A DNA stretch of 24,000 nucleotides, taken from assembly GCF_042685105.1 (NCBI RefSeq), contig NZ_JBHUMO010000056.1, positions 65,383 to 89,382 on the forward strand. The letters are read 5' to 3'. Made by a program: the position numbers and the translations under genes. Positions within the stretch are counted from its first letter, which is position 1. Each line of letters begins with the position of its first letter. This document shows, in pieces, positions 3,516 to 21,729 of the stretch. Below the pieces are notes generated by a model. The model was not told where the DNA came from. It saw only the letters and a list, made by a program, of their open reading frames with translations, and made no database searches. The DNA comes from Enterococcus camelliae. Lineage in GTDB: Bacteria; Bacillota; Bacilli; Lactobacillales; Enterococcaceae.

Positions 3516-3545
3516 AGGACACAAATTTTACACATTTTTTACAAT
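3516..3545 (+). promoter_or_regulatory. candidate distal oppA promoter P1: AGGACA (3516-3521), 18-nt spacer, TACAAT (3540-3545)
   Basis: Hexamers read from the sequence, with an A-rich UP-like tract upstream. The -35 match is weak. Confidence 0.25.
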
Positions 3546-3580
3546 TATGAAGAAAAAATGAAATTTTTATAAAATACTGC

Positions 3581-3609
3581 TTGCTTTTTTAATAATTACT
3601 AATTAAAAT
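3581..3609 (+). promoter_or_regulatory. candidate proximal oppA promoter P2: TTGCTT (3581-3586), 17-nt spacer, TAAAAT (3604-3609)
   Basis: Hexamers and spacing read from the sequence, about 60 nt upstream of the oppA start. Confidence 0.35.
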
Positions 3610-3631: not shown

Positions 3632-3646
3632 CATTTTCTGAAAAAA
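3632..3646. promoter_or_regulatory. candidate CodY box CATTTTCTGAAAAAA (12/15 match to AATTTTCWGAAAATT)
   Basis: Read directly from the sequence. It sits between candidate promoter P2 and the oppA SD. opp operons are classic CodY targets in low-GC Gram-positives. Confidence 0.3.
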
Positions 3647-3668: not shown

Positions 3669-5336
3669 ATGAAAAAGAGATGGGCCTATAGCTTGGTTAC
3701 GATTTTTGGACTTGCACTAGCAGGTTGTTCTACTACAGGTGGATCTTCCTCATCGACAGCGACATCCAATAGTTCAGGAGGAGAAGCAAAAGATCAGACC
3801 TTTAAAGTCGTTGTGCAACAAGAAATGCCAAGTGCTGATCTATCATTGGCAACCGATACGATTAGTTTCAGTGCATTAAATAATGTGTACGAAGGAATTT
3901 ATCGCTTAAATAAAGACAACAGTCCAGAACCTGCGGGCGCTTCTGAGAAAGCCAAAGTGAGTGATGATGGTCTAACCTATACAATTAAATTACGTAAAGA
4001 TGCCAAATGGTCAAATGGGGACCCCGTAACGGCCGCAGATTATGTTTACGGATGGCAACGAACCGTTAATCCGAAAACAGCATCAGAATATGCCTATCTT
4101 TTTTCACCAGTCAAAAATGCGGATGATATCACAGCTGGTAAGACAGCGGTCGATCAATTAGGAATTAAGGCCGTTAATGATCATGAATTAGAAATTACTT
4201 TATCCAAAGCTACACCGTACTTTGACTATTTATTAGCATTCCCTTCATTTTTCCCACAAAATCAAAAAGTCGTTGAAGAGAATGGTTCAAAATATGCTCA
4301 ATCTAGTGCTACAGCAGTTTACAATGGACCATTTACCTTAACAGACTTTGATGGACCTGGTACTGATACTGAGTGGAGTTACACGAAAAATGATCAATAT
4401 TGGGACAAAGAAAATGTGAAATTAGCTAAAGTCGAAGTGAGTGTTGTGAAAGAATCATCAACTTCTTTGAACTTATTCCAAGATGGAGAAGCGGATGATG
4501 TCATCCTTTCTGGTGAATTGGCACAACAAATGGCCAATGACAAATCATTTGTCTCTCAACCAGAAGCTTCTACGACCTATCTAGAAATGAATCAACGGAA
4601 GGCAGACTCACCATTTAAAAATGAAAACTTAAGAAAAGCAATTTCTTACGCTATTGATCGTGACTCGTTGGTAAATTCTATTTTAGGTGATGGTTCAATT
4701 GCTTCTACTGGTTTAGTACCATCTGGGATGACATTTAGTCCTAAAAACAAAGAAGATTTTACAAAATCGGCTGGGACTGAACTTTCTTACAGCAAGAAGG
4801 AAGCGAAAGAATATTGGGAAAAAGCGAAAAAAGAATTGGGTATTACTTCTTTGAAGTTTGATATTTTATCTTCTGATACCGATTCATCTAAAAAAATTAC
4901 CGAATATCTTCAAAGTGCCATTCAAGAATCTTTGGAAGGTGTGACTGTTACGCTAAGTCCAGTACCATTCTCTGTTCGTTTGGACCGTTCAAATGCCGGT
5001 GATTTCGATGTTGTCATGGGTGGCTGGGGAGCTGACTATGCTGATGCAAGTAGTTTCTTAGATTTATTTGTGACAGGCAATTCTTATAACCGTGGGCAAT
5101 GGAGCAATTCAGAGTATGATGCAACAATCAAAGCAGCTAGTACAACCGATGTTAGTGATCCAGAAAAACGCTGGGATGATTTGGTTAAAGCTGAAAAAGT
5201 TTTAATGGATACACACGGCGTTGTTCCATTGTATCAAAAAGCCGAAGCACACTTACGTAATACGAAAGCGAAGGGCGTGGTTGCCCATGGTGCGGGGGCA
5301 CAATACGACTATAAATGGACGTACATCGCTAAATAA
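3669..5336 (+). CDS. oppA: oligopeptide ABC transporter substrate-binding lipoprotein (SBP family 5), paralogue 1
   Basis: Lipobox LALAGC at the N-terminus and family-5 SBP blocks (WSNGDPVTAADYVYGWQR, VMGGWGADYADASSF). SD AAAGGAGAG lies upstream of ATG 3669. Confidence 0.9.
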   Translation: MKKRWAYSLVTIFGLALAGCSTTGGSSSSTATSNSSGGEAKDQTFKVVVQQEMPSADLSLATDTISFSALNNVYEGIYRLNKDNSPEPAGASEKAKVSDDGLTYTIKLRKDAKWSNGDPVTAADYVYGWQRTVNPKTASEYAYLFSPVKNADDITAGKTAVDQLGIKAVNDHELEITLSKATPYFDYLLAFPSFFPQNQKVVEENGSKYAQSSATAVYNGPFTLTDFDGPGTDTEWSYTKNDQYWDKENVKLAKVEVSVVKESSTSLNLFQDGEADDVILSGELAQQMANDKSFVSQPEASTTYLEMNQRKADSPFKNENLRKAISYAIDRDSLVNSILGDGSIASTGLVPSGMTFSPKNKEDFTKSAGTELSYSKKEAKEYWEKAKKELGITSLKFDILSSDTDSSKKITEYLQSAIQESLEGVTVTLSPVPFSVRLDRSNAGDFDVVMGGWGADYADASSFLDLFVTGNSYNRGQWSNSEYDATIKAASTTDVSDPEKRWDDLVKAEKVLMDTHGVVPLYQKAEAHLRNTKAKGVVAHGAGAQYDYKWTYIAK

Positions 5337-5353
5337 TTAAGGTAGTTTGATAC

Positions 5354-5386
5354 CAATCTCATTCAGTTGGTTACTGAATGAGATTG
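5354..5386 (+). terminator. perfect 14-bp stem-loop between the two oppA paralogues (partial terminator/attenuator or mRNA-stabilising hairpin)
   Basis: CAATCTCATTCAGT (5354-5367), loop TGGTT, ACTGAATGAGATTG (5373-5386). The 3' tail AGTTTAATT is only weakly U-rich. Confidence 0.5.
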
Positions 5387-5427
5387 AGTTTAATTAGGAT
5401 ACTATGCCAAAAATAAGGGGGAACACG

Positions 5428-7077
5428 ATGAAAAAGAAACAGATTATTGGTTGGTTAGCTTTATGTGGAATTGTTTTAGCGGGTTGTACAACTGGAGGAT
5501 CTACCAAAGAAAGTGGAACTTCAAGTTCAACCACAAAACAAGAATTTAATGTTGTTGTTCAACAAGAAATGCCAACAGCAGATTTATCAGTGGCGACAGA
5601 TACGATTAGTTTTACGGCATTAAATAATGTGTATGAAGGATTATATCGTTTAGACAGTGAAAATAAACCACAGGCAGCTGGTGCTGCAGAATTGGCCACT
5701 GTTAGTGATGATGGACTAACCTACACACTAAAATTACGAGAAGATGCCAAATGGTCAAATGGCGACCCTGTAACGGCGGCAGATTATGTTTATGGTTGGC
5801 AACGTACAGTCAATCCAAAAACAGCTTCAGAATATGCTTATTTATATGAATCTGTTGAAAATGCAACAGAAATCACTAACGGAGAAAAAACAGTTGATCA
5901 ATTGGGAATCAAAGAAAAAGGTGATTATGAGTTAGAAATTAAACTAACAAAACCAACACCGTATTTCCAATACCTATTGGCTTTCCCTTCATTTTTCCCA
6001 CAAAATCAAAAAGAAGTGGAAAAAGAGGGCGATAATTATGCCAAGACAAGTGCGAATGCTATCTACAATGGGCCATTTACACTTGAAGGATTTGATGGCC
6101 CAGGTACGGATACTGAATGGAGTTACAAGAAAAACAAAGAATATTGGGATAAAAAGAATGTAAAACTGGAAACAATCAATGTCAGTGTTGTAAAAGAATC
6201 CTCAACTTCTCTCAATCTTTTCAAAGATGGTCAAGCGGATGATGTGATTCTTTCAGGTGAACTAGCACAACAAATGGCTAATGATAAGGCTTTTGTCTCA
6301 CAAGAAGATGGTCGTACTTCTTATTTAGAATACAACCAACGAAAAGCAGATTCTCCATTTAGAAATACCAAATTACGTCAAGCCATTTCCTATTCCATTG
6401 ACCGTAATGTGTTAGTGAAAAATGTCTTAGGTGATGGTTCAATTGCTTCAACAGGTTTGATTCCAAAGAACTTGACATTTGGACCTGATGGTACTGAATT
6501 TACCAAAGCATCTGGAAAACAGGTAAGTTATGATGCTGACAAGGCGAAAAAACTTTGGGCAGAGGCTAAAAGTGAACTAGGCATCAGCTCATTGACGTTT
6601 GATATCATCGCTTCAGATGATGATTCAACGAAAAAAGTAGTTGAGTACATTCAAAATGCCATTCAAGAAAACTTAGAGGGGACTAAGGTAACCGTGACGC
6701 CTGTACCATTTTCAGTTCGTCTAGATCGTTCAACATCAGGTGATTTTGAAGTTGTCATGGGTGGTTGGGGAGCTGACTATGCTGATGCAAGTAGCTTTAC
6801 AGATCTCTTTGTCACTGGCAATTCTTACAACCGCGGACAATGGAGCAATGCCGAATATGATAAGGTAAATAAAGCGGCAGGAACAACCAATGTAGCAAAT
6901 CCTGAAAAACGTTGGGCCGACTTACTTGATGCAGAAAAAATAATTATGGCGGATCAAGGTGTAACGCCGGTCTTCCAAAAAGCTGAAGCACATTTACGAG
7001 CAACCAAAGTAAAAGATGTTGTTGTACACAGTGCAGGAGCTCAATACGATTACAAATGGGCTTATATTAAAGAATAA
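5428..7077 (+). CDS. oppA: oligopeptide ABC transporter substrate-binding lipoprotein, paralogue 2
   Basis: The ORF opens at 5404, but SD AAGGGGG (5415-5421) lies 6 nt before ATG 5428 (MKKKQIIGW..). Lipobox VLAGC. Long blocks are identical to paralogue 1. Confidence 0.9.
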   Translation: MKKKQIIGWLALCGIVLAGCTTGGSTKESGTSSSTTKQEFNVVVQQEMPTADLSVATDTISFTALNNVYEGLYRLDSENKPQAAGAAELATVSDDGLTYTLKLREDAKWSNGDPVTAADYVYGWQRTVNPKTASEYAYLYESVENATEITNGEKTVDQLGIKEKGDYELEIKLTKPTPYFQYLLAFPSFFPQNQKEVEKEGDNYAKTSANAIYNGPFTLEGFDGPGTDTEWSYKKNKEYWDKKNVKLETINVSVVKESSTSLNLFKDGQADDVILSGELAQQMANDKAFVSQEDGRTSYLEYNQRKADSPFRNTKLRQAISYSIDRNVLVKNVLGDGSIASTGLIPKNLTFGPDGTEFTKASGKQVSYDADKAKKLWAEAKSELGISSLTFDIIASDDDSTKKVVEYIQNAIQENLEGTKVTVTPVPFSVRLDRSTSGDFEVVMGGWGADYADASSFTDLFVTGNSYNRGQWSNAEYDKVNKAAGTTNVANPEKRWADLLDAEKIIMADQGVTPVFQKAEAHLRATKVKDVVVHSAGAQYDYKWAYIKE

Positions 7078-7162: not shown

Positions 7163-7498
7163 TTACAGAAAAGCCAAGCCTAAAAATACCAAACTCAAAA
7201 GGAATAGTATCAAGGCAGGTTCCAACCAAAAGCGATAACTTGTTCGACCGATTTCTGAAAGCGTGAGATAGTCTTCTTTTGTTTTCCTAAAAGCTTTTTT
7301 CCATGAATATTGAAAGAAGTCAAGTGATCCAGAGGCGCAAACCCATAAAAAGCTTCCAATGATTAAAAAGAATAGAGTGAAGGAAAATAATAGGTCAGAC
7401 ACACGGGACCAAGCAAAATCTGAGAAGATCATTGGCCATAACAAGCTAATAATCAACCCCGCAATACTGATGATGAGGGTACTTTTACGAAGGTGCAT
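7163..7498 (-). CDS. small integral membrane protein (111 aa, about 3-4 TM helices), function unknown; possibly DUF3899-like
   Basis: Hydrophobic segments in the translation, SD AAGGAG (reverse complement of 7506-7511) upstream of the ATG, and its own promoter candidate. The family assignment is from memory only. Confidence 0.6.
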   Translation of the reverse strand: MHLRKSTLIISIAGLIISLLWPMIFSDFAWSRVSDLLFSFTLFFLIIGSFLWVCASGSLDFFQYSWKKAFRKTKEDYLTLSEIGRTSYRFWLEPALILFLLSLVFLGLAFL

Positions 7499-7587: not shown

Positions 7588-8529
7588 GTGAATAGTTTTG
7601 TTAAATATATCTTAAAAAGAATTTTTTTTATGGTGGTTACGTTGTGGATTATTGCGACGATTACCTTTTTCTTAATGAAATTGCTACCTGGTACACCCTA
7701 TACGAATGCAGAAAAATTGAGTGCACAACAAATTGCCCTGTTAAATAAACAAATGGGCTTGGATAAGCCAATGATTGTGCAATATGGTCTATATTTGAAT
7801 AATTTATTGCACTTTGATTTGGGGATTTCCTTCCAATTTAAAAACCAACCAGTAGCCAATCTGCTGAGTGCTCGTATTGGACCATCCTTACAATTAGGGA
7901 TTCAAGCAATCATTGTTGGGACACTAGGAGGCATTATTCTAGGAGCTATTTCAGCGATGAAACAAAATACTTGGATCGATACAACGGCAACCTTAGTGGC
8001 GATTCTTGGACGCTCCATTCCAAACTTTGTGTTTGCTGTCTTATTACAATATGTGTTTGCCATGAAATTGCACATTTTACCAATTGCAAAATGGGAAACC
8101 TTTGCTTATACAATCTTACCAACGATTGCCTTGGCAATGTCCCCATTAGCAGATTCTGCTCGGTTTATTCGGACGGAAATGGTGGAAGTGTTGCATAGTG
8201 ATTATGTGGAACTGGCACGTGCAAAAGGCTTAAGCCGTTGGGGAATTGTTTTTCATCATGGCTTACGTAACAGTTTGATTCCATTATTAACACTGTTAGG
8301 ACCATTAGCAGTTGGACTGATGACTGGTTCGCTGGTTGTTGAAAATATTTTTGCTATTCCGGGTATCGGAGAGCAATTTGTCAAATCAATCATGACAAAT
8401 GATTACCCAACGATTATGGCTGTGACGATGCTTTATTCAGCAATGTTGGTTGTGGTTATTCTAATTGTCGACATTTTATATGGAATTGTTGATCCAAGAA
8501 TTCGTGTATCAGAAGGGAGTCGTAGCTAA
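7588..8529 (+). CDS. oppB: oligopeptide ABC transporter permease OppB
   Basis: GTG start 7 nt after AGGAGG (7575-7580). Typical OppB/DppB N-terminus (FVKYILKRI..) and six TM segments. Confidence 0.9.
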   Translation: MNSFVKYILKRIFFMVVTLWIIATITFFLMKLLPGTPYTNAEKLSAQQIALLNKQMGLDKPMIVQYGLYLNNLLHFDLGISFQFKNQPVANLLSARIGPSLQLGIQAIIVGTLGGIILGAISAMKQNTWIDTTATLVAILGRSIPNFVFAVLLQYVFAMKLHILPIAKWETFAYTILPTIALAMSPLADSARFIRTEMVEVLHSDYVELARAKGLSRWGIVFHHGLRNSLIPLLTLLGPLAVGLMTGSLVVENIFAIPGIGEQFVKSIMTNDYPTIMAVTMLYSAMLVVVILIVDILYGIVDPRIRVSEGSRS

Positions 8530-9575
8530 TGGCTAATTCAGCACAAATAAATGAAAAAGAACTAGCGGCGATTCCGTTAACATCGTTTGAACCTTTAGAA
8601 AAGAGTACGGTTGAAAAGCGTGAAGAAATTGCTATGCCTTCCTTAACGTTTATGCAAGATTCTTGGCGTCGTCTAAAGAAAAACAAAGCAGCCGTTTTTT
8701 CAATTGTCTTGTTGGCAATCATTATTGCAATCTCGTTAATTACCATTTTTGTGTCTCCACATAATCCTACAACACAAAATGTGAAATATACCAATCTGCC
8801 ACCCAAAATTCCAGGTATCAATATTACTGGCCTGAATGGACATGCCGAAGTGGGAGGGAAAGTGGTTGACAAATATGCGCAAGCCAATGTCCCTGCTGGC
8901 ACCTATTTTTATCTTGGAACGGATAGTCTGGGCCGTGATTTATTAAGTCGCTTATTTATGGGGACACGAGTATCATTATTAATTGCCTTTATCGCCGCGT
9001 TGCTCGACATTGTTTTCGGAGTGACTTATGGCTTGATTTCTGGCTTACTAGGTGGGCGTGTGGACAATATCATGCAACGGTTTTTAGAAGTGATTTCTGG
9101 TATTCCTAATCTAGTTGTGATGATTTTAATGTTGGTTGTTTTTGAACCAGGTATTCCATCAATTGTTGCAGCTATGGCAATTACGAACTGGATACCAATG
9201 GCTCGGATTGTCAGGGCGCAGACGATGAAGCTCAAAGACCAAGAGTTTGTATTGGCTGCGACGACACTAGGGGAAACACGTTCGAAAATAGCATTTAAGC
9301 ATATCTTACCGAATATTTCGAGTGTCATTATTATCCAAATGATGTTTAGTATTCCGTCGGCGATTTTCTTTGAAGCTTTCTTGAGTTTCATTGGTTTAGG
9401 GCTTCGTCCACCGGTTGCTTCCTTGGGTACATTGTTAAGTGATGGTTACAAGACCTTTCTATTTTTGCCCTACCAATTATGGGTCCCAGCAATAACGCTC
9501 TCGGTCATTATGATTGGCTTTAACTTACTAGCTGATGGGCTACGTGATGCGTTTGATCCGAAGATGAAAGAGTGA
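8529..9575 (+). CDS. oppC: oligopeptide ABC transporter permease OppC
   Basis: TAATG stop/start overlap with oppB. OppC N-terminal block (QDSWRRLKKNKAAVFS) and BPD-transport permease core. Confidence 0.9.
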   Translation: MANSAQINEKELAAIPLTSFEPLEKSTVEKREEIAMPSLTFMQDSWRRLKKNKAAVFSIVLLAIIIAISLITIFVSPHNPTTQNVKYTNLPPKIPGINITGLNGHAEVGGKVVDKYAQANVPAGTYFYLGTDSLGRDLLSRLFMGTRVSLLIAFIAALLDIVFGVTYGLISGLLGGRVDNIMQRFLEVISGIPNLVVMILMLVVFEPGIPSIVAAMAITNWIPMARIVRAQTMKLKDQEFVLAATTLGETRSKIAFKHILPNISSVIIIQMMFSIPSAIFFEAFLSFIGLGLRPPVASLGTLLSDGYKTFLFLPYQLWVPAITLSVIMIGFNLLADGLRDAFDPKMKE

Positions 9576-9579
9576 TTGA

Positions 9580-10620
9580 ATGAATAAGATAATTGAAGTG
9601 AAAAATTTAGAGATTTCTTTCGATACATTTGCCGGAAAAGTTCAAGCCATTCGAAATGTCAGCTTTGATTTGTATCAAGGCGAAACGTTAGCCATTGTTG
9701 GTGAATCGGGAAGTGGGAAATCAGTAACCACACGAAGCATTATGGGGTTGCTAGCTAGCAATGCCAATGTTGAGAATGGGGAGATTTTATTTAACGGTTC
9801 GGATATCGTAAAGAAAAGTGAAAAGGAATTACAAAAAATTCGAGGAAAAGATATTGCGATGATTTTCCAAGATCCAATGACTTCACTGGATCCAACGATG
9901 CCAATTGGCAGACAGGTAGCAGAATCTTTGATCAAGCATACCAAAATTTCCAAAAAAGAAGCACTAAAGCAAGCATTAGAATTGTTAAATTTGGTTGGCA
10001 TTCCTAACGCCGAAAAGCGGCTAAAAAATTATCCGCACCAATTTTCTGGTGGACAACGACAACGGATTGTGATTGCGATTGCGTTGATTTGTTACCCACA
10101 AGTGCTCATTGCTGACGAACCTACGACGGCCTTAGATGTGACCATCCAAGCCCAAATTATCGAATTACTGAAAGATATTCAACAAAAAATGAATTCATCC
10201 ATCATTTTCATTACCCATGATTTAGGAGTTGTTGCCAATGTCGCCGATCGTGTTGCAGTGATGTATGGTGGGAAAATTATTGAGATTGGAACGGCTAGAG
10301 AAATTTTCTATAATCCACAACATCCGTATACTTGGGGGTTGCTTGGTTCAATGCCTACGTTGGAAAGCACAGGAAAACGGTTATATGCGATACCAGGTTC
10401 CCCTCCTGATTTATTAAAGCCACCAACTGGGGATGCGTTTTATCCACGGAATGAATACGCAATGAAAATTGATGCTGAACAAGAACCACCATTTTTTGAT
10501 GTTTCACCTACCCATAAGGCAGCAACTTGGTTATTAGCACCTCAAGCGCCAAAAGTGACACCACCAGAAGAAATCCAAATTCGCTGGAAAAAATTTCAAG
10601 AGAATGCTTTTGGAGAGTAA
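9580..10620 (+). CDS. oppD: oligopeptide ABC transporter ATP-binding protein OppD
   Basis: Walker A GESGSGKS, signature FSGGQRQR, Walker B LIADEPTTALD, and the oligopeptide-type C-terminal extension. Confidence 0.9.
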   Translation: MNKIIEVKNLEISFDTFAGKVQAIRNVSFDLYQGETLAIVGESGSGKSVTTRSIMGLLASNANVENGEILFNGSDIVKKSEKELQKIRGKDIAMIFQDPMTSLDPTMPIGRQVAESLIKHTKISKKEALKQALELLNLVGIPNAEKRLKNYPHQFSGGQRQRIVIAIALICYPQVLIADEPTTALDVTIQAQIIELLKDIQQKMNSSIIFITHDLGVVANVADRVAVMYGGKIIEIGTAREIFYNPQHPYTWGLLGSMPTLESTGKRLYAIPGSPPDLLKPPTGDAFYPRNEYAMKIDAEQEPPFFDVSPTHKAATWLLAPQAPKVTPPEEIQIRWKKFQENAFGE

Positions 10621-10634
10621 GGAGGGAAAGATAA

Positions 10635-11573
10635 GTGAGTAAAGTCCTATTAGATGTAAAGAATTTAAAACAATATTTTAATGTGGGTCGTAAAGATGAA
10701 GTTAAAGCTGTTGATGATATGACCTTTCACATTTTTGAAGGCGAAACATTTGGTTTAGTAGGGGAATCCGGAAGTGGCAAATCGACGACTGGTCGTTCTA
10801 TCATCCGACTGAATACACCAACTGATGGCACGATTACCTTCGATGGTCAAGATGTGATGAAATTGAAAAGTAAACAAGAATTGAAGGATTTCCGTCGGGA
10901 GGTTCAAATGATTTTCCAGGATCCGTATGCATCGCTTAATCCACGAATGAAAGTGCGTGATATCATCGCAGAAGGAATTGACATTAATCATTTGGCCAAA
11001 AACGAGAAGGAGCGAAATGCACGGGTCGATGAGCTACTGAAAACAGTTGGCTTAAATCCATCACATGGGACACGTTATCCGCATGAATTTTCAGGTGGAC
11101 AACGGCAACGGATTGGGATTGCTCGAGCTTTGGCAGTGGATCCCAAATTCATCATTTGTGATGAACCGATTTCCGCTTTGGACGTATCCATTCAAGCACA
11201 GGTTGTGAATTTATTGCAAGATCTACAAGAAAAACATAATTTAACCTATTTTTTCATTGCACATGATTTGTCGATGGTAAAACACATCAGCGATCGAATT
11301 GGGGTAATGCATCTGGGAAAATTACTTGAAGTAGGGACAAGCGATGAAATTTACCATTATGGTGTGCATCCGTATACCGAAAGTTTGTTGTCTGCGATTC
11401 CTTTGCCCGATCCTGAAAGTGAACGAACAAGAAAACGGATTAAATATGTCGAAGTTCCACAAGCGAATACCGCAAGAAAAATGCAAGAAATTGCACCAGG
11501 TCATTTTATTTATGCGACAGAAGAAGAAGTGCCAATGTATCAAGAAAAATTACGAAAAAAGAAGGAAGTTTAA
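10635..11573 (+). CDS. oppF: oligopeptide ABC transporter ATP-binding protein OppF
   Basis: GTG start after AAGGAGGG. Walker A GESGSGKST, signature FSGGQRQR, Walker B IICDEPISALD. Confidence 0.9.
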   Translation: MSKVLLDVKNLKQYFNVGRKDEVKAVDDMTFHIFEGETFGLVGESGSGKSTTGRSIIRLNTPTDGTITFDGQDVMKLKSKQELKDFRREVQMIFQDPYASLNPRMKVRDIIAEGIDINHLAKNEKERNARVDELLKTVGLNPSHGTRYPHEFSGGQRQRIGIARALAVDPKFIICDEPISALDVSIQAQVVNLLQDLQEKHNLTYFFIAHDLSMVKHISDRIGVMHLGKLLEVGTSDEIYHYGVHPYTESLLSAIPLPDPESERTRKRIKYVEVPQANTARKMQEIAPGHFIYATEEEVPMYQEKLRKKKEV

Positions 11574-11597: not shown

Positions 11598-12605
11598 ATG
11601 AAAGTGTTAAAAGGTTATCGTTTTCGGATTTACCCGGACGAAGAACAATTGACATTTTTTAAGCAAACCTTTGGCTGCGTAAGATTTACGTACAATCAAT
11701 TGTTGATGGCAAGAAAAGGAACAGCAAACTCAGAAGAAAGCATGAAATTAACCCCCGCTGCATTAAAAAAAGACTATCCCTTTTTGAAAAAAACGGATAG
11801 TCTGGCTTTGGCCAATGCACAACGTAATTTGGAGAGAGCCTACGCGAATTTTTTTCAAGGAAGAGCAGGCTACCCAAAACTAAAAAGCAAGAAAAATAGT
11901 TGGCAATCTTACACAACGAATAATCAAAAACATACCATTTATTTTATCGATGGGAAATTGAAACTGCCAAAATTGAAAAGTCTCGTCCAAGTTCACCAAC
12001 ACCGAGAGATAAAAGGGATGATTCGTTCCGCTACGATTTCGGCAAAAAATAATGAAGAATTTTATGTTTCATTGTTGTGTTTAGAAGAGGTTTCATTCTT
12101 GCCAAAAACAAAGAAAGTAATCGGCATTTCTTATTGTCCGCAACGATTGATTCAATTATCGCAATCTTTCGATAATTTACCAAATATTGAAGAACAATTG
12201 CTAGGAGACAAACTGGAAAAAGCCCAAAAGAAATTGCAACTGCGAGCCAAAATCGCTAAAAAACATAAAGTAAGATTAAGAGATGCCAAGAATTATCAAA
12301 AGCAAAAGCAACGAGTGCAAAAGTTAATTCAGGAAAAAGCCTGTAAAAAAAATGATTTTATTGATCAGTTGACGTTTCTCTTAGTCAAAGAGTTTGACTA
12401 TATATTTGTTGAAAAACAACCACGGATAACCGATAGTGAAGAAGACAATCCATTTACTTCAACGGATTGGTATAGTTTTACTCAAAAATTGACGTATAAA
12501 ACGCAATGGTATGGCAAAGAGTATCTCGCGGTTGAGAGTCCGGATGACAGCATTCGTTCTAGTCGAATCATTGAGGAATTAGGAAAACAACAACTTGATT
12601 TGTAA
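11598..12605 (+). CDS. tldR: TnpB-like (IS605 OrfB-derived) protein lacking nuclease motifs: candidate TnpB-like nuclease-dead repressor (TldR), oppF-associated
   Basis: Canonical TnpB N-terminus MKVLKGYRFRIYPDEEQLTFFKQTFGCVRFTYNQLL. The RuvC-I position reads VIGISYCPQ instead of GIDLG. The ORF ends after ..WYGKEYLAVESPDD.., so the CxxC zinc finger and RuvC-III are missing. SD AAGGGGG lies 7 nt upstream of the start, and the start is 24 nt after the oppF stop on the same strand. No tnpA is nearby. Confidence 0.8.
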   Translation: MKVLKGYRFRIYPDEEQLTFFKQTFGCVRFTYNQLLMARKGTANSEESMKLTPAALKKDYPFLKKTDSLALANAQRNLERAYANFFQGRAGYPKLKSKKNSWQSYTTNNQKHTIYFIDGKLKLPKLKSLVQVHQHREIKGMIRSATISAKNNEEFYVSLLCLEEVSFLPKTKKVIGISYCPQRLIQLSQSFDNLPNIEEQLLGDKLEKAQKKLQLRAKIAKKHKVRLRDAKNYQKQKQRVQKLIQEKACKKNDFIDQLTFLLVKEFDYIFVEKQPRITDSEEDNPFTSTDWYSFTQKLTYKTQWYGKEYLAVESPDDSIRSSRIIEELGKQQLDL

Positions 12606-12710
12606 AAAAATCGATCAGAACTGGAAGGGGCTCCAGGGATCGCCTAGGGTATAGAAAAAAGGAAACTTTTTGTTTCTAGGAAAAATGCTCACTAATTATG
12701 AAAAACCAAA
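12500..12710 (+). ncRNA. candidate TldR guide RNA (omega-RNA-like scaffold overlapping the 3' end of the ORF plus a downstream guide); boundaries approximate
   Basis: By analogy with TnpB omega-RNAs, which span the 3' end of tnpB and the downstream flank. The non-coding tail folds into hairpin A (CGATC-agaa-CTGGA-aggggc-TCCAG-g-GATCG, 12612-12642) and stem B (CCTAG 12643-12647 with CTAGG 12676-12680, enclosing GAAAC-ttttt-GTTTC). An unstructured A/T-rich stretch at 12681-12710 follows, just before the convergent terminator. Confidence 0.35.
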
Positions 12711-12740
12711 GAAGAGAGAGGACAGCTGTCCTCTCTCTTC
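12701..12740 (-). terminator. rho-independent terminator of the convergent Nudix/NrtR-like operon; may also stop plus-strand opp/tldR transcripts
   Basis: Perfect 30-nt palindrome GAAGAGAGAGGACAG/CTGTCCTCTCTCTTC (12711-12740). On the minus strand it is followed by TTTGGTTTTT. There is no T-run on the plus strand. Confidence 0.75.
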
Positions 12741-12749
12741 GCTTATCTT

Positions 12750-13580
12750 CTATAATTCCTCATGAAAAACATTTTGTTTTAGTCGGTAAACTTTTGAAGG
12801 TCGACCAATACCGGTCGGACGTTCGCCAATTTCATCGAAAAAGTGCAACAATGACTTCTTAAAATTGGAATGATCAATTAAGCGGTAGTCAATGCCCAAA
12901 AATTTCGAAAAGACCTTTCTGGCTTCCGTGATTGTAAATGACTGCCCTAAGACTTGCAACACTTGAGGTTCGTGCTCCATTTTATTGGCAATTCGATTAA
13001 AGGCTTTTAAAATAATCGCGCTGTGGTCAAAGGCTAATCGATCTTTTCCAAACGATTGACCAGTCACCAAGTCGAGCACAATGGCTGTGTGCTCACTTTC
13101 TAAATGAATCTGATTGGCCTTTCTTTCCAGCGAGAACCAACGGACATCTTCGGCATCATCACCAGCTAAGAGCGGTTCTTCTCCAATGAAAGCAAGGTAA
13201 CTGACTGTTACGACCCAACCACGAGGATCACGATTTGGGGTGCTGAAGGTGTGGAGCTGTTCAATATTTTGTTTGGATATTTTGACGCCAGTTTCTTCTT
13301 CGGTTTCACGAATCACGCTTTCACCTGTCGATTCATCGGGTTGCACGAACCCACCAGGAAGGGCCCAAGAATTTTTGAATGGGTGACCTTTGCGTTTGAT
13401 GAGTAAAATTTTTAATTTATCTTCGGATTTGCTGTAGCACATCAAGACCATATCGACCGTTAGCGAAGGTTTTTCGTAGTTGGGTTTTTCTTGTTTGCGA
13501 TACCAAGCGAGAAATTCCTGTTCACTTGCTTGGTGCTCGTAGTAGTCCTTTTCATCCTCTCGACTGGAAAAAGTTGCCAT
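12750..13580 (-). CDS. Nudix hydrolase with C-terminal winged-helix domain (NrtR-like ADP-ribose pyrophosphatase / NAD-metabolism regulator family)
   Basis: Intact Nudix box GFVQPDESTGESVIRETEEETGV. The C-terminal LAFDHSAIILKAFNRI..FTITEARKVFSKFLG..IDHSNFKKS.. resembles the NrtR wHTH domain. Confidence 0.75.
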   Translation of the reverse strand: MATFSSREDEKDYYEHQASEQEFLAWYRKQEKPNYEKPSLTVDMVLMCYSKSEDKLKILLIKRKGHPFKNSWALPGGFVQPDESTGESVIRETEEETGVKISKQNIEQLHTFSTPNRDPRGWVVTVSYLAFIGEEPLLAGDDAEDVRWFSLERKANQIHLESEHTAIVLDLVTGQSFGKDRLAFDHSAIILKAFNRIANKMEHEPQVLQVLGQSFTITEARKVFSKFLGIDYRLIDHSNFKKSLLHFFDEIGERPTGIGRPSKVYRLKQNVFHEEL

Positions 13581-21552: not shown

Positions 21553-21661
21553 TCAGAAGAAACCAAGAAAAATTTAATCTAACTATTAGAAGATTTTCAA
21601 GATTGAATACGAGAGTTACGGTAAAATAATTACATAACCAACAATAACCTTTTTATTTTTC

Positions 21662-21729
21662 AGTAACTCCCTAACCAAGAGTTACTACTCCTTTTTCCGC
21701 TAGGCCTAACCAACCTAGTGGTTTTTTTT
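21662..21729 (+). terminator. two tandem hairpins with identical 9-nt loops (CCTAACCAA); the second is followed by T8
   Basis: AGTAACTC-CCTAACCAA-GAGTTACT (21662-21686) and CCGCTAGG-CCTAACCAA-CCTAGTGG (21697-21721), then TTTTTTTT (21722-21729). Confidence 0.55.

Follow-up and report, generated by a model that had tools for sequence, protein, structure and literature searches.

The window, by which we mean the whole 24,000-nucleotide stretch of Enterococcus camelliae DNA that was analysed, carries an opp operon with the gene order oppA-oppA-(antisense DUF3899)-oppBCDF-tldR. The last of these genes encodes a TnpB-like protein of 335 amino acids, and a non-coding tail separates it from a palindrome and a convergent NUDIX/NrtR gene (Table 1). 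All larger open reading frames of the window were annotated, and no tnpA or Y1 transposase was found among them. The position of tldR after oppF is fixed across genera, with synteny to the opp genes kept across Enterococcus and Tetragenococcus and no scattered copies. A match to the Rfam family Ref84 lies elsewhere in the window and is a pointer to Enterococcus. The tail had been singled out in an initial annotation made from the letters of the window, and each sequence element that it listed was found in place, namely the stop codon, the short repeats CGATC/GATCG, CTGGA/TCCAG and CCTAG/CTAGG, the pair GAAAC/GTTTC around TTTTT, the stretch 12681-12710 and the palindrome at 12711-12740.

Table 1. 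Features of the opp-tldR locus in window coordinates
Feature	Position	Strand	Basis or remark
Promoter-like block TTGCTT (3581-3586) - 17 nt - TAAAAT (3604-3609)	3581-3609	+	TAM and target lie within the spacer
TAM 5'-TTTAA	3588-3592	+	
Predicted target, non-target-strand sequence TAATTACTA	3593-3601	+	81 nt upstream of the oppA1 ATG
oppA1 (SBP_bac_5), predicted regulated gene	3669-5336	+	Pfam
Second oppA, in tandem with oppA1	5404-7077		
DUF3899 ORF inside the opp operon	7163-7498	antisense	
oppB, oppC, oppD, oppF	7588-11573 (oppF 10635-11573)		
tldR, 335-aa TnpB-like protein, predicted nuclease-dead repressor, right after oppF	11598-12605	+	Pfam, alignment to 8bf8, homology
tldR stop codon	12603-12605		
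Non-conserved spacer between stop codon and gRNA, contains CGATC	12606-12617	+	Variable in the 55-locus alignment
gRNA scaffold, about 75 nt	12618-12692	+	R1 and Ref70 matches
Hairpin 1, CUGGA (12621-12625) / UCCAG (12632-12636), loop AGGGGC	12621-12636	+	Covariation
Pseudoknot 5' strand GGGC, in the hairpin 1 loop	12628-12631	+	Pairs with 12687-12690
Hairpin 2, two parts	12643-12680	+	Covariation, MFE fold
Hairpin 2 outer stem, CCUAG / CUAGG	12643-12647 / 12676-12680	+	94.9% paired, one CG-to-UA compensatory change
Hairpin 2 conserved internal loop, GGUAUAGA / GUUU		+	
Hairpin 2 inner stem, AAAAAG / CUUUUU, with GAAA tetraloop (12662-12665)	12656-12661 / 12666-12671	+	
Pseudoknot 3' strand GCUC (12687-12690), then invariant AC, the scaffold end	12687-12692	+	
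Guide UAAUUAUGA, 9 nt	12693-12701	+	Homology with Efa1; may reach about 12703-12704
A(A/G)CC(A/G) motif 3' of the guide	12704-12708	+	Conserved in nearly all main-clade loci, across genera
13-bp palindrome / hairpin	12711-12740	both	T-tract good on - (TTTGGTTTTT), poor on + (GCTTATCTTC)
NUDIX/NrtR gene, convergent with tldR	12750-13580	-	

Calling the tldR product TnpB-like proved apt for its fold and not for a nuclease. Pfam returned HTH_OrfB_IS605 (8.7e-15), with weak or truncated matches to the OrfB_IS605 and TNB domains, and residues 5-310 align to ISDra2 TnpB (8bf8) with an E-value of 9e-27. In this alignment the first RuvC aspartate of ISDra2 TnpB (D191) is replaced by Ser178, the glutamate E278 is kept as Glu272, and nothing corresponds to the part with D361 and the CxxC zinc finger, leaving the window protein with neither the third RuvC motif nor the zinc finger. 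The protein ends 25 residues past the aligned core, and its only cysteines are at positions 27, 161, 180 and 249. Judged by these sequence features, it is an oppF-associated TldR, nuclease-dead, and not a nuclease TnpB. Its nearest named homolog is from E. italicus (81% identity); proteins of E. italicus and E. sulfureus appear in the published oppF-TldR dataset (bioRxiv 10.1101/2023.11.30.569447), and the exact window protein was found neither in the contig index nor in the accessible part of that dataset's supplement. The residues with which Efa1TldR of E. faecalis reads the TAM and stacks on the heteroduplex have been reported as S74, L75, N79, Q81, N114, Q116, Y307 and W311 (10.64898/2026.09.22.753285). 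At a constant offset these would correspond to S68, L69, N73, Q75, N108, Q110, Y300 and W304 here, all of which are invariant or nearly so in a 20-protein alignment.

Relatives of the gene occur in several other settings. A 99%-identical protein is encoded in conspecific metagenome contigs, in which the tail is identical and tldR differs at 10 nt. Some enterococci carry tldR paralogs without a recognisable gRNA (four paralog loci), and other enterococci have gRNA-bearing tldR genes without an adjacent opp operon. In a Tetragenococcus metagenome-assembled genome, the gRNA model matches weakly behind an intact-looking TnpB (locus L057).

From 80 related genomic loci that were retrieved, the DNA that follows a conserved protein motif was compared. 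In 55 non-identical loci the homologous gene is followed by a conserved block, AACTGG...CTAGGAA...CTCAC-TAATTAT. The order shared by these loci is AACTGGAAGGGGCTCCAGGGATCGCCTAGGGTATAGAAAAAA, a variable hairpin, TTTTTGTTTCTAGGAA, a variable linker, CTCAC, TAATTATGAAAAACCA and a terminator, and in the E. faecium group an inserted hairpin takes the place of the variable linker before CTCAC. Conservation starts at about 12618, 13 nt past the stop codon, and upstream of this point there is none beyond coding constraint. The initial annotation had taken the tail to hold only the end of a scaffold; by these boundaries the tail contains the whole conserved scaffold, which here is predicted to have no overlap with the open reading frame. 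The tail stands above chance because it is conserved and not because of its folding energy, for which the z-scores are unremarkable (-0.69 for 12606-12710 and -0.38 for 12618-12704).

A covariance model of orthologous tails, the check that had been proposed along with the initial annotation, was built from 54 homologous Enterococcus and Tetragenococcus loci with the window excluded (model R1). It matches 12618-12704 over its full length at 102 bits (E 6.3e-23), a score as high as that of any family member, with the stems and the pseudoknot covarying and an invariant guide after the scaffold. At the gathering level, Rfam gave no match in the tail. A scan by E-value returned a full-length match of RF02841, Ref70 ("Enterococcus sRNA 70"), to 12615-12704 at 40.6 bits (E 3e-6), which is below the curated gathering score of 115 and marks the window RNA as a homolog and not a member by the Rfam cut-off. 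Ref70 also matches, at 71 bits, the gRNA of L062, an opp-linked tldR locus that is more divergent. The Ref70 consensus 3' end, CUAAUUAUUAgUu, contains the E. faecalis guide-target string up to its last base (UAAUUAUU), and Ref70 thus looks like the E. faecalis representative of the oppF-TldR gRNA, a link that is mentioned in neither of the bioRxiv TldR papers (10.1101/2023.11.30.569447; 10.64898/2026.09.22.753285). In all 56 loci with a recognised guide, the RNA lies directly downstream of a tldR homolog.

For the structure of the scaffold, base pairs were counted on the 55-sequence alignment, with slid partners and shuffles as controls. Across the whole model, 93.9% of cells are paired compared to 38-56% for slid partners, both-side changes occur in 11 pairs, and no shuffle reached any of the measures. 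Hairpin 1 has 92.4% of its cells paired and both-side changes in three of its five pairs; it is also present in the minimum free energy (MFE) fold, and it was the sole helix returned by RNAalifold from the long flanked alignment, so the other helices were tested explicitly. The inner stem of hairpin 2 is 91.6% paired, with both-side changes in five of six pairs and the same register in the MFE fold; this inner part of the hairpin varies in length between loci and is absent in E. cecorum. The pseudoknot that joins the loop of hairpin 1 to the end of the scaffold is paired in 97.7% of cells, compared to 30-47% for slid partners, and it shows 33 compensatory cells; its pair types are AU26/GU15/GC14 and GC36/AU19. 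In 500 shuffles, neither its pairing nor its covariation score was ever equalled. The top mutual-information pairs of the alignment fall in the inner stem and the pseudoknot, with one pseudoknot pair ranking second-highest, and the MFE fold of the window sequence itself gives the nested part of the model.

These counts retain about half of each of the two hairpin modules originally drawn for the tail. In the first, CTGGA/TCCAG holds (92% paired, three compensatory pairs), whereas CGATC (12612-12616) with GATCG (12638-12642) is 43% paired, approximately the level of the slid controls. In the second, CCTAG/CTAGG holds (94-95% paired), whereas GAAAC/GUUUC is 10-45% paired, the true register being AAAAAG/CUUUUU. 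The stretch 12681-12710, which had been described as unstructured, contains both the covarying 3' strand of the pseudoknot, GCUC at 12687-12690, and the guide. A search for an upstream partner of GGGATCGCC found none enriched relative to shuffled sequence (mean best helix 4.45 vs 4.35 nt), and for GGGAUCGCC no upstream partner was enriched at any distance. The published gRNA has a triplex, a pseudoknot and two stems, of which one is divided in two by a bulged loop (10.64898/2026.09.22.753285). The covariation model agrees with this architecture, with the correspondence of the published "Stem 1" and "Stem 2" to hairpins 1 and 2 left unassigned.

The boundary of the guide was placed by homology. 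The segment directly after the invariant CAC is homologous to the E. faecalis guide/target string TAATTATTT (10.64898/2026.09.22.753285) and to the Ref70 consensus 3' end, which sets the guide start at 12693. This falls within the range of 12653-12694 that had been offered beforehand, at its extreme edge, with most of that range being scaffold. The heptamer TAATTAT is invariant in 56 of 56 guide-bearing loci (55 related loci and the window), while the linker before it varies; among these loci guide position 8 is G or A, and positions 10-11 vary.

Inspection of the scaffold and the oppA promoter revealed no obvious complement to the A(A/G)CC(A/G) motif that follows the guide. It is unlikely, though worth keeping in mind, that the segment 12704-12708 has a function of its own, as a 3'-end processing point, as part of a stem-loop or dimer of the guide region, or as part of a longer guide with a second target; a guide-region stem-loop or dimer has been reported for the binary complex (bioRxiv 10.1101/2023.11.30.569447; 10.64898/2026.09.22.753285). 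A small open reading frame from an ATG inside the guide (12698) was considered and discarded, being absent in Tetragenococcus and only four codons long in some species. The palindrome downstream is an element separate from the gRNA. It would serve well as the terminator of the convergent NUDIX/NrtR gene and poorly on the plus strand, where the poor T-tract GCTTATCTTC agrees with the earlier remark that this strand has no U-tract after the palindrome. In homologous loci the equivalent position mostly holds bidirectional terminators.

Comparison of the guide to TAATTACTA upstream of oppA1 shows a complete seed match (6/6); beyond the seed, position 7 forms an rU:dG wobble, position 8 is mismatched and position 9 matches, for 7/9 overall. 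The combination TTTAW+TAATTA occurs at one site in the window (3588-3598, plus strand), with a chance expectation of 0.16 and at least one site in 15 of 100 shuffles, so that on the window alone the site is weak evidence and not significant. For 41 related loci the retrieved DNA includes a close oppA homolog, and all 41 have a corresponding site 40-150 nt upstream of that gene. Of the 57 occurrences of the 11-mer, 47 fall within this interval, approximately 1,800 times the density elsewhere, in loci that share ancestry and are not independent. Position 8 is mismatched to the target in every locus examined, and the change at position 7 is limited to the clade of the window, E. italicus and E. 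sulfureus. No TAM-plus-seed site precedes the second oppA (5404).

In an alignment of the DNA upstream of oppA, 12 species share the block 3581-3609 with little or no change, and the DNA upstream of the block is unalignable. From this we infer that the block is the oppA1 promoter; it was missed by a simple promoter scan, its -35 element matching at only 3 of 6 positions. A blind scan of every 9-mer start from 12630 to 12725 against TTTAW-flanked sites, allowing at most one mismatch, yielded nothing upstream of oppA; it missed the site because the true site has two mismatches, and the guide boundary was needed from homology first. An alternative site at 3537-3551 (TTTAC|AATTATGAA), which would match over 9 nt with a guide start at 12694 and overlaps a scanned promoter, AGGACA-18-TACAAT, was rejected because it is unconserved even in E. 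italicus, where 3581-3609 is invariant, and because its TAM is neither TTTAA nor TTTAT. Published targets overlap the promoter in E. faecium and lie downstream of the transcription start site in E. faecalis (10.64898/2026.09.22.753285), and here RNA polymerase could possibly be blocked in either mode, at initiation or during elongation.

Family conservation, covariation, the Ref70 match and a TAM-flanked target in the operon support the core of the initial proposal, in which the tail holds a guide-RNA scaffold of the TnpB type and then a guide, and we are highly confident that this RNA is the gRNA of TldR. The fuller reading, that the plus-strand segment from 12618 to about 12701-12704 serves as the gRNA of an oppF-associated TldR and steers it to the promoter-like site of oppA1, where it represses without cutting, is in our judgement a strongly probable one. 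The published systems have a gRNA just downstream of tldR, a 5'-TTTAA TAM, a mature guide of about 9 nt and a target in the promoter or leader of their own oppA (10.1101/2023.11.30.569447; 10.64898/2026.09.22.753285), with evidence in E. faecalis from RIP-seq, ChIP-seq, reporter assays, native RNA-seq and cryo-EM (same papers). By analogy to E. faecalis and its relatives, binding of the RNA by the protein, a 9-nt mature guide, use of the TAM and repression would also be expected in E. camelliae.

On this model the RNA would probably be co-transcribed with the opp-tldR message and then trimmed to the part protected by TldR, trimming being the published view of how the gRNA 3' end arises (10.1101/2023.11.30.569447; 10.64898/2026.09.22.753285). 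It would fold into a small hairpin and a two-part hairpin, with the pseudoknot tying the hairpin 1 loop to the four bases GCUC, and the folded scaffold would present the 9-nt guide UAAUUAUGA. TldR would read 5'-TTTAA while the guide pairs with the TAATTA seed at 3588-3601. As the bound complex would sit within the spacer between the -35 and -10 elements, it would be expected to block RNA polymerase and lower oppA1 expression, and as TldR is predicted to be nuclease-dead, the RNA would direct repression and not cleavage, leaving the DNA uncut. Effective repression of oppA1 in E. camelliae is probable, and it is less certain than the identity of the gRNA because the complementarity is short and because deletion of tldR-gRNA in E. 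faecalis caused almost no de-repression of oppA under standard conditions (10.64898/2026.09.22.753285).

The only rival with real weight accepts the gRNA and TldR as real and holds that oppA1 is no longer an effective target here, or that the system acts mainly elsewhere, at a site outside the window. The oppA1 target has indeed drifted to TAATTACTA, where the changes at positions 7 and 8 leave a 6-nt seed within a 7/9 match, and additional putative targets have been published for E. cecorum (bioRxiv TldR papers); there are also tldR loci that have a gRNA and lack an adjacent opp operon. Published specificity is mismatch-tolerant, resting on the TAM and a seed of about 6 nt. The published ChIP motifs, however, show that the TAM and about 6 nt are what TldRs read, and exactly these are strictly kept upstream of oppA in 41 of 41 loci. 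In addition, the rU:dG wobble at position 7 is tolerated, and tldR and its gRNA are intact, the gRNA scoring as high as any in the family. A system that has lost oppA1 as an effective target, or that acts mainly elsewhere, is on this evidence distinctly improbable.

The remaining alternatives deny that the RNA is a TldR guide. As the Rfam family that it matches has no annotation beyond Enterococcus sRNA, the tail could be a stand-alone trans-acting sRNA of the Ref70 type that pairs with mRNAs, with its TnpB-like neighbour incidental. This is very improbable given that the RNA directly follows a tldR homolog in 56 guide-bearing loci, set beside four paralog loci without the RNA, and that a weak homolog lies behind the intact TnpB of L057. 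Two stems and a pseudoknot followed by an invariant segment with a TAM-matched DNA site are the architecture of a TnpB-type guide RNA, and the E. faecalis homolog was found bound to TldR by RIP-seq and cryo-EM (10.64898/2026.09.22.753285; 10.1101/2023.11.30.569447). A TnpB-family protein with an RNA at the usual omega-RNA place would also fit an active, mobile IS200/IS605 element whose nuclease cuts DNA for transposon retention. We give this next to no weight, as the first RuvC aspartate is replaced, the third motif and the zinc finger are missing, the window is without tnpA and the locus is syntenic with opp across Enterococcus and Tetragenococcus. The guide is invariant across genera, while a transposon guide mirrors each insertion site, and published assays found no nuclease activity in the clade (bioRxiv TldR papers). 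Finally, folding z-scores that are not significant are what an ordinary 3' untranslated region with chance hairpins before a shared terminator would give, but that reading is already refuted by covariation, with compensatory changes in 11 pairs, and by the 102-bit family-model match, alongside the invariant segments that stand between freely varying ones; its probability is close to nil.

The oppF-TldR gRNA is already known as a kind of RNA, its clade and nearest relatives having been published between 2023 and 2026, and the E. camelliae locus is an ordinary member that adds little for the field beyond that work. It does confirm that a TldR guide RNA can be recognised by a sequence-only reading, and it provides a precise map for E. 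camelliae, in which a scaffold of about 75 nt leads into the guide at 12693-12701 and the TAM and target occupy 3588-3601. Minor additions are the compact scaffold variant, the pseudoknot covariation from 55 loci and the link between Ref70 and the TldR gRNA. Two further small additions are the mismatch at guide position 8 in most species, joined by position 7 in the clade of the window, and the conserved ACC after the guide.

Among known systems, the E. faecalis Efa1TldR system is like that of the window in having a truncated, nuclease-dead TnpB homolog after oppF with a gRNA directly downstream, a gRNA of two stems and a pseudoknot, a guide starting with UAAUUAU, a TTTAA TAM and a target upstream of its own oppA. 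The E. faecalis V583 operon has the same gene order, including the antisense DUF3899 gene within it (10.64898/2026.09.22.753285). The scaffold is about 75 nt in the window, compared to 97-100 nt published for Efa1TldR; relative to Ref70, the window RNA has about 15 nt fewer in the inner loop of hairpin 2 and no counterpart of a 15-nt hairpin that precedes the guide, which explains the difference. The guide reads UAAUUAUGA in the window and UAAUUAUUU in Efa1TldR, and the 7/9 target match here compares to a full 9-nt match in E. faecalis, as deduced from the published search string and the 9-bp heteroduplex. The site in the window falls in what resembles a -35/-10 spacer, as in E. faecium, whereas the E. 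faecalis target is downstream of the transcription start site; the window also has two tandem oppA genes, with a site at the first only. The window protein is about 39% identical to that of L062, the divergent opp-linked branch whose gRNA is the best against Ref70 and which is taken to be the closest to E. faecalis. Ref70 itself shares both hairpins and has CUAAUUAU at its end, and it is annotated only as an sRNA without a link to TldR.

ISDra2 TnpB (8bf8, 8exa, 8h1j) is homologous to the window protein over about 305 residues (E 9e-27), and it shares an RNA 3' of the gene, a pseudoknotted scaffold followed by the guide and a TAM 5' of the target. Its nuclease is intact and its guide is 16 nt, whereas the window TldR is predicted to be dead with a guide of about 9 nt; its omega-RNA overlaps the 3' end of the gene and is tied to transposon ends, whereas the window RNA occupies an intergenic tail in a fixed host operon. 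The fliC- and csrA-associated TldRs, as well as dCas12 and dCas9 in CRISPRi, likewise use an RNA-guided, nuclease-dead protein to block RNA polymerase at a promoter or early transcribed region. The fliC- and csrA-associated TldRs belong to other clades, with other partner genes, a 16-nt guide and different TAMs, and CRISPRi is an engineered system whose RNAs are unrelated to the window gRNA.

Downstream of the guide, a short segment reading A(A/G)CC(A/G) (window 12704-12708), located 12-16 nt past the guide start, is kept in nearly all main-clade loci, unlike guide positions 10-11, which are variable. The mature guide in the oppF-TldR literature is only 9-11 nt long. By inspection, no obvious pairing partner for this segment was seen in the scaffold or in the oppA promoter. 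Within the guide itself, position 8 (window 12700) is a G or an A and is mismatched to the oppA-upstream site in every locus examined; on its non-target strand, that site always has a T at the corresponding position. In E. faecalis, by contrast, guide and target appear to match in full, judged by the published search string (bioRxiv 10.64898/2026.09.22.753285).

Two oppA paralogs lie in tandem (window 3669-7077), and the TAM-plus-seed site is found upstream of the first of them only. The CodY box has the consensus AATTTTCWGAAAATT, and the oppA1 leader contains a CodY-box-like segment, CATTTTCTGAAAAAA (window 3632-3646), that is conserved in the oppA leaders of other species, where it reads ATTATTCTGAAAATT. 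Two layers of control may thus act on oppA1. The DUF3899 interruption of the operon is the same as that described for the opp-tldR operon of E. faecalis V583 (bioRxiv 10.64898/2026.09.22.753285). Elsewhere in the window, Rfam places the sRNA Ref84, which is also present in the related loci L001 and L043.

Additional features of the window
Feature	Position	Strand	Remarks
Hairpin CAATCTCATTCAG...CTGAATGAGATTG	5351-5383		between the two oppA genes
DUF3899 ORF, 111 aa	7163-7498	-	antisense, between oppA2 and oppB
Ref84 (Enterococcus antisense sRNA)	21636-21729	+	Rfam, 62.7 bits, above gathering score

Good gRNAs were also detected at six tldR loci (L024, L029, L031, L035, L042 and L051) with no opp operon within 10 kb upstream of tldR, their guides reading TAATTATAAC/T... 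and TAATTATGATA. The TTTAA+TAATTA site is absent from the fetched DNA of the first five; that of L051 has one such site, at +19822, and no oppA homolog. Four further loci (L015, L017, L023 and L061), from E. lemanii, E. eurekensis, E. alcedinis and a MAG, encode tldR-like paralogs of 301-309 aa (match at ~10001-10930 in each), none of which is followed by a recognisable gRNA or lies next to an opp operon. Each of the three named species has a second, gRNA-bearing tldR copy.

In a Tetragenococcus MAG (L057), the TldR gRNA model weakly matches positions 11159-11271 (24.9 bits, E 0.011), after an intact-looking TnpB with CxxC present, a sequence match compatible with descent of the TldR gRNA from a TnpB omega-RNA. 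Within the gRNA, columns 85 and 111 of alignment A3 (window 12625 and 12650), the final base of the hairpin 1 5' arm and a hairpin 2 internal-loop base, covary as A-U in 29 sequences and U-A in 14, a pattern that could stem from a tertiary contact or be an artefact of phylogeny. A full-text search for the Rfam family Ref70 in Enterococcus did not bring up either of the TldR papers. The RF02841 Ref70 model ("Enterococcus sRNA 70") scores 40.6 bits on window 12615-12704 and 71.1 bits on 11108-11216 of L062, a divergent opp-linked tldR locus, both under its gathering score of 115; this family and the TldR gRNA are homologous.
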